Notes: a model not told the origin generated them from the letters alone. A stretch of 597 nt of DNA from Escherichia coli (GCF_003334255.1 NZ_QOWU01000215.1); one strand, 5' to 3'; counted from the stretch's first letter, positions 13 to 264 are shown. A program made the numbers and translations.

Positions 13-264
13 ATGGGATACGGTTTACTGGATATTGCGAATCAGTCACGGCGTGAGGCATTACAGGGAATAAGTGACGCCGACAGGCGACGTGAAGAAA
101 TTGAGGCTGCTAACAAGCAGATGGCGGCGCAACAGAAAGCGCAGAACAAGCAGAATATCGGTACGGGCATTGGTACGGGGGCGGCTATGGGCGCTGCCGT
201 TGGTGGTCTCCCCGGTGCGGCTATTGGTGCTGTCATAGGTGGTCTTGCTGGCTCGTTGTTTTAA
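13..264 (+). CDS. Small glycine-zipper protein, 83 aa; predicted single C-terminal membrane helix with a charged N-terminal domain; function unknown (possibly phage or prophage encoded)
   Basis: ATG at 13 follows a strong SD and the ORF ends at TAA 262..264. The track translation ends in ...NIGTGIGTGAAMGAAVGGLPGAAIGAVIGGLAGSLF, with 12 Gly in the last 34 residues and Gly at i, i+4 from G52 to G80. The N-terminal half is rich in R/E/Q/A. Third-position codon usage is GC-biased and enterobacterial-like, consistent with real coding sequence. Confidence 0.8.
   Translation: MGYGLLDIANQSRREALQGISDADRRREEIEAANKQMAAQQKAQNKQNIGTGIGTGAAMGAAVGGLPGAAIGAVIGGLAGSLF

Follow-up and report, generated by a model that had tools for sequence, protein, structure and literature searches.

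A glycine-zipper protein encoded in the internal-protein cassette of a Sepvirinae prophage of Escherichia coli, a candidate accessory ejection protein

A stretch of Escherichia coli DNA of 597 nucleotides (GCF_003334255.1, NZ_QOWU01000215.1; hereafter the window) is assigned by its sequence to the late region of a Sepvirinae (933W/Sakai/phi24B-like) prophage, and contains one complete gene, encoding a protein of 83 amino acids (aa), between the genes of two proteins found in phage particles. The explanation favoured here, tentatively, is that the 83-aa protein is an accessory internal-virion (ejection-cassette) protein, the C-terminal glycine zipper of which would insert into the host envelope, or pack inside it, once ejected. 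Short-tailed Shiga toxin (Stx) phages spread Shiga toxin genes, and the way in which they cross the E. coli envelope is an unsolved question; the internal proteins of these phages have no homologues among the studied ejection proteins of T7, P22 and N4.

Gene cassette, virion proteomics and deletion genetics

The 83-aa open reading frame (ORF) is a real gene and not a chance ORF, since it is preceded by a Shine-Dalgarno sequence, matches the family PHROG 594 from end to end (E 1.7e-42; function unassigned in that database), has about 73 full-length homologues, and differs from the ortholog of phage Sakai in the codons of its N-terminal domain by six synonymous and zero non-synonymous substitutions. 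Its orthologs are ORF78/ECs1240 of Sp5 and vb_24B_46 of phi24B, named ‘gp49’ in the phi24B paper; the latter shares 92% identity with the 83-aa protein, including the whole of residues 1-59. Five human-commensal E. coli genomes contain a prophage that matches the window at 100% identity; a further 186 phage records match it at 87-97%, and almost all of these are short-tailed Stx-converting Sepvirinae, including 933W, VT2-Sakai/Sp5, phi24B and POCJ13.

The prophage of the exact-match genome encodes a capsid protein of the N4-gp56 family and carries the 83-aa gene in the late operon. Five genes form the cassette, encoding, in this order, proteins of 218 aa, 148 aa, 83 aa and 421 aa and a 2793-aa LPD38 ‘polyvalent’ protein. 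The coding sequence of the 148-aa protein ends at position 15003 of the exact-match locus, which is position 3 of the window, and the Shine-Dalgarno sequence of the 83-aa gene, TAAGGAGG, lies 4 nt 5' of its start. The same design is repeated at 1-8 and 262-268, where a TAA stop codon is embedded in the Shine-Dalgarno sequence of the following gene (TAAGGAGG and TAAGGAG, respectively). Because each preceding stop overlaps the next Shine-Dalgarno sequence, the 83-aa gene is tightly linked to both neighbours, and the design shared by the two junctions suggests translational coupling along the cassette.

The same arrangement was found in Aeromonas phage phiARM81mr, with a small protein 49% identical to the 83-aa protein, and in five metagenomic contigs, with family members 33-51% identical. 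In these six loci a 148-aa protein homologue is encoded by the ORF upstream (E 7e-45 to 4e-4), and a 421-aa protein homologue by the ORF downstream (E 2e-18 to 3e-3). Since its position is kept across such divergence, the 83-aa gene is part of the module and not a moron. It lies in a block of internal-protein genes within the morphogenesis operon, with conserved synteny, which is one of the criteria for ejection proteins. The other four cassette proteins contain no hydrophobic segment to match that of the 83-aa protein, which is the most hydrophobic of the five.

The adjoining genes encode virion proteins. In a preprint of 2026 on phi24B, combining cryo-electron microscopy (cryo-EM) with proteomics of the virion (bioRxiv 10.64898/2026.04.10.717836), the estimated copy numbers per virion are about 22-41 for gp51 (listed with 260 aa; 218 aa in Sp5), 36-73 for gp50 (148 aa), 30-55 for gp48 (421 aa) and 19-35 for gp47 (2811 aa), the last of which was proposed by the authors to be an ejection protein. 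All four are abundant virion proteins, none is resolved in the cryo-EM map or given a structure-derived copy number in that source, and they are located inside the particle.

The phi24B ortholog of the 83-aa protein was itself detected in the same preparation. Its entry, ‘gp49 E. coli bacteriocin’ (ORF 47581-47838), has 13 counts altogether, 6 of them from the batch digest (bioRxiv 10.64898/2026.04.10.717836), and the gp49 peptide EALQGISDADR from purified phi24B virions corresponds to residues 15-25 of the 83-aa protein. Together with Lom, Bor and a transcription regulation factor, gp49 was called a contaminant ‘based on functional annotation’ (bioRxiv 10.64898/2026.04.10.717836); it was discarded only because of the label ‘bacteriocin’, and it has no model in the phi24B structure described there. 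With the portal as reference and a correction for length, our arithmetic converts the 6 counts over 83 aa into about 6 copies, a stronger signal than that of the adaptor gp62, which has 6 counts over 245 aa and is a genuine 12-copy protein. The 83-aa protein gives very few tryptic peptides; candidates for targeted proteomics would be GYGLLDIANQSR, EALQGISDADR and EEIEAANK.

The cassette genes of Sp5 were covered by a systematic in-frame deletion study (PMC5155283). Deletion of ORF79 (421 aa) or of ORF80 (2793 aa) gave non-infective phage with normal DNA packaging and heads, and this phenotype, in which DNA is packaged and the particle is non-infective, is the behaviour expected of ejection proteins. 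Deletion of ORF76 (218 aa) markedly reduced infectivity, while ORF77 (148 aa) is outside the defective mutants reported there and is, by exclusion, dispensable on K-12 (PMC5155283). The 148-aa protein gp50/ORF77 is accordingly among the most abundant of the unresolved phi24B virion proteins, yet apparently dispensable in the laboratory in Sp5.

Table 1. Features of the window and of the adjoining cassette genes. Positions are those of the window, or of the exact-match locus where marked L001.
Feature	Position	Strand	Details	Basis
Stop TAA (1-3) of the upstream 148-aa virion-protein gene and Shine-Dalgarno sequence TAAGGAGG of the 83-aa gene	1..8	+		sequence
83-aa ORF (ATG start)	13..264	+	complete; WP_000540393.1; PHROG 594	ORF translation
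N-terminal domain, residues 1-49 of the 83-aa protein	13..159	+		AlphaFold2, periodicity, conservation
C-terminal glycine zipper, residues 50-83 of the 83-aa protein	160..261	+		Pfam, family alignment
Stop TAA (262-264) overlapping the Shine-Dalgarno sequence TAAGGAG of the downstream gene	262..268	+		sequence
First 107 codons of the 421-aa protein	275..597	+	Sp5 ORF79/ECs1241; phi24B gp48	homology, gene order
218-aa cassette gene	L001 13898-14554		Sp5 ORF76 ortholog	gene order
148-aa cassette gene	L001 14557-15003		Sp5 ORF77/phi24B gp50 ortholog	gene order

Just upstream of the cassette, and still within the late structural region, the exact-match locus carries a gene of the Ail/Lom family of outer-membrane proteins (L001 12240-12974) and a toxin gene of the hok/gef family (13206-13346). 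The 218-aa virion protein has a short zipper-like stretch of its own (GAGLGAVGAYAM), followed by a Gly/Ser-rich tract near the C-terminus. The N-terminus of the 421-aa protein contains a conserved motif of the G[FL]xxGFxxGF type (MSGFAQGLLAGFSTV…), kept in homologues of only about 25% identity (L003, L004, L005, L009, L010 and L011). Sequence searches of the PDB with the 148-aa and 421-aa proteins gave no meaningful match. In the 597-bp window, no Rfam family matched, and no promoter-like or terminator-like site was detected in a scan for such sites; PADLOC found no defence-system match for the 83-aa protein. Two ORFs on the minus strand, 42-236 (64 aa) and 61-330 (89 aa), overlap the 83-aa gene; they were rejected as genes, being explained by the GC-rich Gly and Ala codons of the zipper, and the substitution pattern supports the plus strand only.

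Architecture and family of the 83-aa protein

Exhaustive search of 1.8 billion cluster representatives (50% clustering) with the 83-aa protein yielded 86 matches, about 73 of which are proteins of 76-97 aa aligned from the first to the last residue. The family consensus is MxYGL…A..GL…A..E..R…N.Q…Q.K…G.GAG.GAM.G…GGP.GA.IGA..G.LAG.LF. In the family alignment G72 is invariant, and G56, G68 and G76 are conserved at 90% or more; 72 of the 74 members have a Pro within the uncharged C-terminal run, and 39 of the 74 end in L-F. Among cultured phages, tblastn with the query and the family consensus found only Sepvirinae, one Aeromonas phage and three Vibrio phages, so that the family has no better-studied relative. 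Virion proteomes and lysogen expression data of JC1, PhiGT1 and a phi24B lysogen contained nothing on PHROG 594.

Three longer proteins were also recovered. P0073 (442 aa) and P0075 (220 aa), considered as fusions to the downstream gene, were rejected as probable frameshift or assembly artefacts, their C-terminal parts appearing to be out of frame. P0110 (713 aa; L015 8001-10142), encoded in a metagenomic podophage structural module with an SU10-type adaptor gene, contains a polar-helix and glycine-zipper module (Pfam match at 506-537), followed almost directly by a Hint N-terminal motif (540-564, E 1e-4); Hint autoprocessing would place its zipper at the extreme C-terminus, as in the 83-aa family.

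A preliminary description of this DNA had placed a charged helical N-terminal domain at 13-159, which is exactly codons 1-49 of the ORF 13..264, and the peptide quoted for it is correct. The domain is hydrophilic and rich in R, E, Q and A as described, with 8 K/R, 7 D/E, 7 Q and 8 A in residues 1-49. The statement that the N-terminus lacks a signal-like stretch also holds, because 19-residue Kyte-Doolittle windows starting in the first 12 positions reach a maximum of -0.31 in the query, and the N-proximal maximum over the 74 family members is 0.69. The helical character is supported by the AlphaFold2 (AF2) model built on a 69-sequence alignment, in which a helix covers residues 3-52 with a predicted local distance difference test score (pLDDT) of 69-79.

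Across the family, residues 9-48 show a periodicity of 105 degrees per residue in conservation as well as in hydropathy, both peaks having 4-5 times the mean power, and the domain is accordingly predicted to be an amphipathic helix with one conserved face. In the family consensus this face comprises A16, G19, L/I20, E27, R30, N34, L/M37, Q40 and K42. The N-terminus MGYGLLD, ahead of the long amphipathic polar helix, is conserved, and in 68 of 69 homologues the spacing within the N-terminal domain does not vary in length. Across 174 phage records the identity over residues 1-31 is 100%, and residues 1-59 are identical in the Sakai and phi24B orthologs. In comparison with the Sakai ortholog, the zipper codons contain 10 synonymous and 7 conservative non-synonymous differences, against 6 and 0 in the N-terminal domain. 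Judged by this substitution pattern, the N-terminal domain is under very strong purifying selection within the Stx-phage clade.

In residues 50-83 there are 12 G, 8 A, 3 I, 3 L, 2 V and one each of M, F and P; the segment matches Pfam Gly-zipper_YMGG (PF13441) over residues 50-82 (E 2.2e-6), other glycine-zipper families matching more weakly. Glycine recurs at every fourth position (52, 56, 60, 64, 68, 72, 76 and 80). The segment is divided into sub-helix 1 (G52-G56-G60), a hinge (G64-G65-L66-P67), sub-helix 2 (G68-G72-G76-G80) and the terminal S-L-F. The sole length-variable part of the family is the spacing from G56 to G68, just before the conserved Pro, which covers 7-17 residues and departs from multiples of 4 in 28 of 69 homologues; as a continuous helix with glycines on one face would not tolerate variable spacing, two short zipper helices with a hinge are favoured. 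AF2 draws a single helix at 56-82 with low confidence (pLDDT 52-63). A model of four linked copies was uninformative (mean pLDDT 40.6), with a helix break at residue 65 in 4 of the 4 copies.

The preliminary description had called this segment the only hydrophobic one, ending 3 residues before the stop codon. Its position at the C-terminus and the very short tail stand: the last zipper glycine, G80, is followed by S-L-F and the stop, and the hydrophobic segment reaches the last residue. Its hydrophobicity is only weak, the best 19-residue Kyte-Doolittle value being 1.69 and the Wimley-White octanol sum being unfavourable, at +1.3 kcal/mol. Simple hydropathy scales were calibrated on proteins from E. 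coli K-12 and the prophage. The corresponding values are 1.85 and -3.2 for ElaB, an annotated tail-anchored protein, 1.88 and -9.3 for Hok, and 1.51 and +2.0 for the mature two-helix zipper of SlyB; the family median of the Kyte-Doolittle value of the C-terminal segment is 1.49. Values of the Hessa scale were summed without position or length terms, and for this reason they are read through the comparison with ElaB, SlyB and Hok and not as absolutes.

As to the typing of the protein as tail-anchored, the layout agrees with it, namely, the absence of a signal peptide, the polar helical N-terminal domain and the C-terminal hydrophobic part, whereas the zipper, the Pro, the variable hinge and the SlyB-like hydropathy do not agree with a classical single-span anchor. 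The C-terminal segment looks, from these features, more like a two-helix SlyB-type zipper than like such an anchor; in view of the AF2 model it may also be a kinked single span. On present evidence the 83-aa protein cannot be filed as a classical tail-anchored protein. The second possibility named in the preliminary description, that of a small phage membrane or virion protein, fits both the genomic and the proteomic context.

Model of action and alternative explanations

According to the favoured explanation, the 83-aa protein would be made late, translationally linked to its neighbours, and packaged in low copy number (of the order of 5-10) alongside the other internal proteins. Packaging would probably proceed via the conserved face of the long amphipathic N-terminal helix, docking to other internal proteins, and the zipper helices would be buried by helix-helix packing, so that the protein stays soluble. 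At infection the protein would exit through the tail as a thin, all-helical rod; the C-terminal two-helix glycine zipper would then insert into or pack within the host envelope, where it would assist the 421-aa and 2793-aa proteins in forming or sealing the conduit for the DNA. Since infectivity persists in its absence, the 83-aa protein would improve entry and not enable it. The zipper appears to suit such a switch from the soluble to the membrane state, being too weakly hydrophobic for a constitutive anchor and similar to SlyB. Weak PHROG matches of the 83-aa protein to several tape measure families lie over the zipper module.

A number of observations weigh against the assignment to the ejection proteins. 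In Sp5, the in-frame deletion of ORF78 (the primers leave MGY-SLF) is not among the non-infective or impaired mutants in the available part of the study (PMC5155283); ORF78 is therefore dispensable on K-12, where the deletion phage still forms plaques and lysogenises, and this is known by exclusion only. Ejection proteins are expected to be required for infectivity and not for head assembly or packaging, and the 83-aa protein, not being required for infectivity, is an accessory member at most. In the virion data, one distinct gp49 peptide occurs among the matches listed, and its counts are spread over gel slices; Lom and Bor, which are outer-membrane proteins, came through the purification in similar amounts, and a late-expressed membrane protein could ride on vesicles. 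The search of the PDB with the 83-aa protein gave a best E of 2, and no solved or characterised homologue among ejection proteins; comparison of N4 gp52 with the 83-aa family by hhalign gave a probability of 0.2%, and N4 gp51 likewise showed no homology. The confidence of AF2 is low for the zipper. Ejection and membrane insertion of the protein after ejection, as well as its packaging, are steps that we infer. Dispensability as such is no argument against packaging, because ORF77, the ortholog of the abundant virion protein gp50, is equally dispensable as far as the deletion study reports.

A rather unlikely alternative, although the strongest one, is that the 83-aa protein is truly tail-anchored, as the preliminary description had it, and sits in the inner membrane of the producing cell. 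Its C-terminal segment would insert post-translationally as a kinked single span, leaving the N-terminal helix in the cytoplasm, and its traces in virions would come from membrane vesicles. It would act late in infection, for example, in tethering or chaperoning internal proteins at the membrane or in modulating envelope or lysis physiology. The ElaB-like architecture, with a polar helical N-terminal domain and a C-terminal GxxxG segment, and the absence of a signal peptide are consistent with this, as is the single helix of 27 residues drawn by AF2 at 56-82, which has bilayer-spanning length. The spacing from G56 to G68 is a multiple of 4 in 41 of 69 homologues, and the Kyte-Doolittle value of the query, 1.69, is just above the rule of thumb of 1.6; however, the family median is 1.49, only 35% of the members reach 1.6, and the simple insertion energy is favourable in none of them. 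The segment scores like the SlyB zipper, unlike ElaB or Hok, and is interrupted in the middle by the conserved Pro and the hinge of variable length. In 29 of 74 members a charge is present in the last five positions, usually E/D at -3, whereas ElaB has a basic C-terminal tail. The similar counts of the membrane proteins Lom and Bor in the purified phi24B material and the dispensability of the gene in Sp5 also speak for this alternative, but the position of the gene is strictly kept between those of two packaged proteins, and not near lysis or regulatory genes.

It is doubtful that the 83-aa protein is a structural adaptor, packaged or acting in assembly only, that never enters a membrane. Its zipper would then be a helix-helix interface with itself or with the 148-aa or 421-aa proteins, and its role would be in organising the bolus of internal proteins, as a scaffold-like chaperone or as a channel plug. 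Glycine zippers are helix-packing motifs (Kim et al. 2005, cited in PMC10240207), which, like the weak hydrophobicity of the segment, agrees with an adaptor. The N-terminal domain is the most constrained part (1-59 identical in phi24B and Sakai, 0 non-synonymous differences), pointing to a protein-protein interface; translational linkage to both neighbours and the zipper-like stretch of the 218-aa cassette member point in the same direction. Nevertheless, all characterised Pfam glycine-zipper families that the segment resembles (YMGG, Omp and 2TM) are membrane-embedded, and the cassette otherwise has no hydrophobic segment, yet two membranes have to be crossed.

The identity as a bacteriocin or microcin, under which many database records, including RefSeq and GenBank, name the protein, is effectively refuted: two Pfam models, Bacteriocin_IIc (residues 47-80, E 0.0033) and MccV (E 0.32), and the E492 microcin model of NCBIfam (E 0.04, with 14.5 bits where the cut-off is 50) match weakly, all below threshold and solely within the low-complexity run of G and A; a double-glycine leader is absent, as is any GG/GA leader motif in residues 1-25; no exporter or immunity genes lie nearby, the neighbours being virion proteins in every locus examined; the gene is kept as part of the virion cassette across genera, and the protein failed every criterion of membership.

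An extension of the ejection-protein explanation, itself unlikely, concerns the family as a whole. PHROG 594 would be an unrecognised class of minimal ejection protein, in which a capsid-carried helix is joined to a C-terminal zipper hairpin, forming the zipper-oligomerised, membrane-inserting element of the Sepvirinae ejectosome, with a free C-terminus being needed. Two features hint at the last of these, the L-F conserved at the terminus and the Hint domain of P0110, which starts right after the same module. If the extension were true, the minimal ejection protein would correspond, in podoviruses, to the glycine-zipper segment found in tape measure proteins; the large ejectosome subunits themselves lack hydrophobic segments.

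The gene was already known in databases as that of a hypothetical protein or a ‘bacteriocin’; what is new is its reading as a cassette member, and this novelty is modest. As the sole member of the cassette with a membrane-type segment, the 83-aa gene offers a cheap and specific handle on envelope crossing. Misleading automatic annotation as a ‘bacteriocin’, based on a sub-threshold compositional match to glycine-rich class II bacteriocins, led to a detected virion-associated protein being discarded. Since the phage can do without the gene in the laboratory and the biochemical support is thin, the immediate impact is modest.

Comparison with known systems

Podovirus ejection proteins are stored soluble in the head and then refold into the envelope as a DNA conduit (PMC8954989). 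In N4 the cassette is transcribed in the order gp52 (150 aa, channel-forming), gp51 (644 aa) and the giant gp50; gp52 contains a glycine-rich hydrophobic part and an amphipathic helix, and gp52 of N4 and gp73 of DEV represent the small ejection protein of Schitoviridae, forming an outer-membrane complex (PMC12633501). Similar to these, the 83-aa protein is small and has a glycine-rich hydrophobic part and a long amphipathic helix. Its gene, like that of gp52, is directly upstream of those of a mid-size protein (a tunnel protein in N4) and a giant protein (ejected in N4), the order of 83, 421 and 2793 aa paralleling that of N4, and both phages have a capsid protein of the N4-gp56 type. N4 gp52 and DEV gp73 are soluble or packaged before ejection and membrane-active after it (PMC12633501), and the 83-aa protein is proposed to resemble them in this. 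Unlike it, gp52 has its hydrophobic part at the N-terminus and is about twice as large, and homology between the two is not detectable (hhalign probability 0.2%). The Sepvirinae protein also differs in being dispensable, and its presence in the virion is documented by one peptide among the data available.

The lipoproteins SlyB, YMGG and OsmB (PF13441, PF05433 and PF13488) share with the 83-aa protein the GxxxG zipper of two sub-helices with a central turn, with a significant Pfam match, and the zipper of SlyB has nearly identical hydropathy. In contrast to SlyB/YMGG lipoproteins, the 83-aa protein has no signal peptide, lipobox, Cys or periplasmic beta domain; its zipper is C-terminal and does not follow a lipid anchor, and it is encoded by a phage late gene. 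Membership in the SlyB/YMGG lipoproteins was rejected, since a signal peptide, a lipobox and Cys are absent from the 83-aa protein.

ElaB, YqjD and YgaM are similar in having a polar helical N-terminal domain of about 50-80 residues, no signal peptide and a C-terminal GxxxG segment. The anchor of ElaB, however, is rich in L and V (Wimley-White sum of -3.2 versus +1.3 for the 83-aa protein), lacks an internal Pro hinge and has a basic end (ARR); there is no sequence similarity, and ElaB is a cellular stress protein and not a member of a virion cassette.

Glycine zippers mediate membrane permeabilisation and translocation of the type VI secretion system effector Tde1, and are present in tape measure proteins (PMC10240207). 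As in these, a coiled-coil or helical region in the 83-aa protein is followed by a GxxxG-rich segment; tape measure proteins and Tde1 are delivered from outside into the membrane of the target cell. The zipper of the 83-aa protein, known here by sequence, differs in belonging to a free-standing podovirus protein of 83 aa, and is not a domain of a large protein. By analogy, the 83-aa protein would work most like the small membrane-active ejection proteins and the zipper segments of tape measure proteins.

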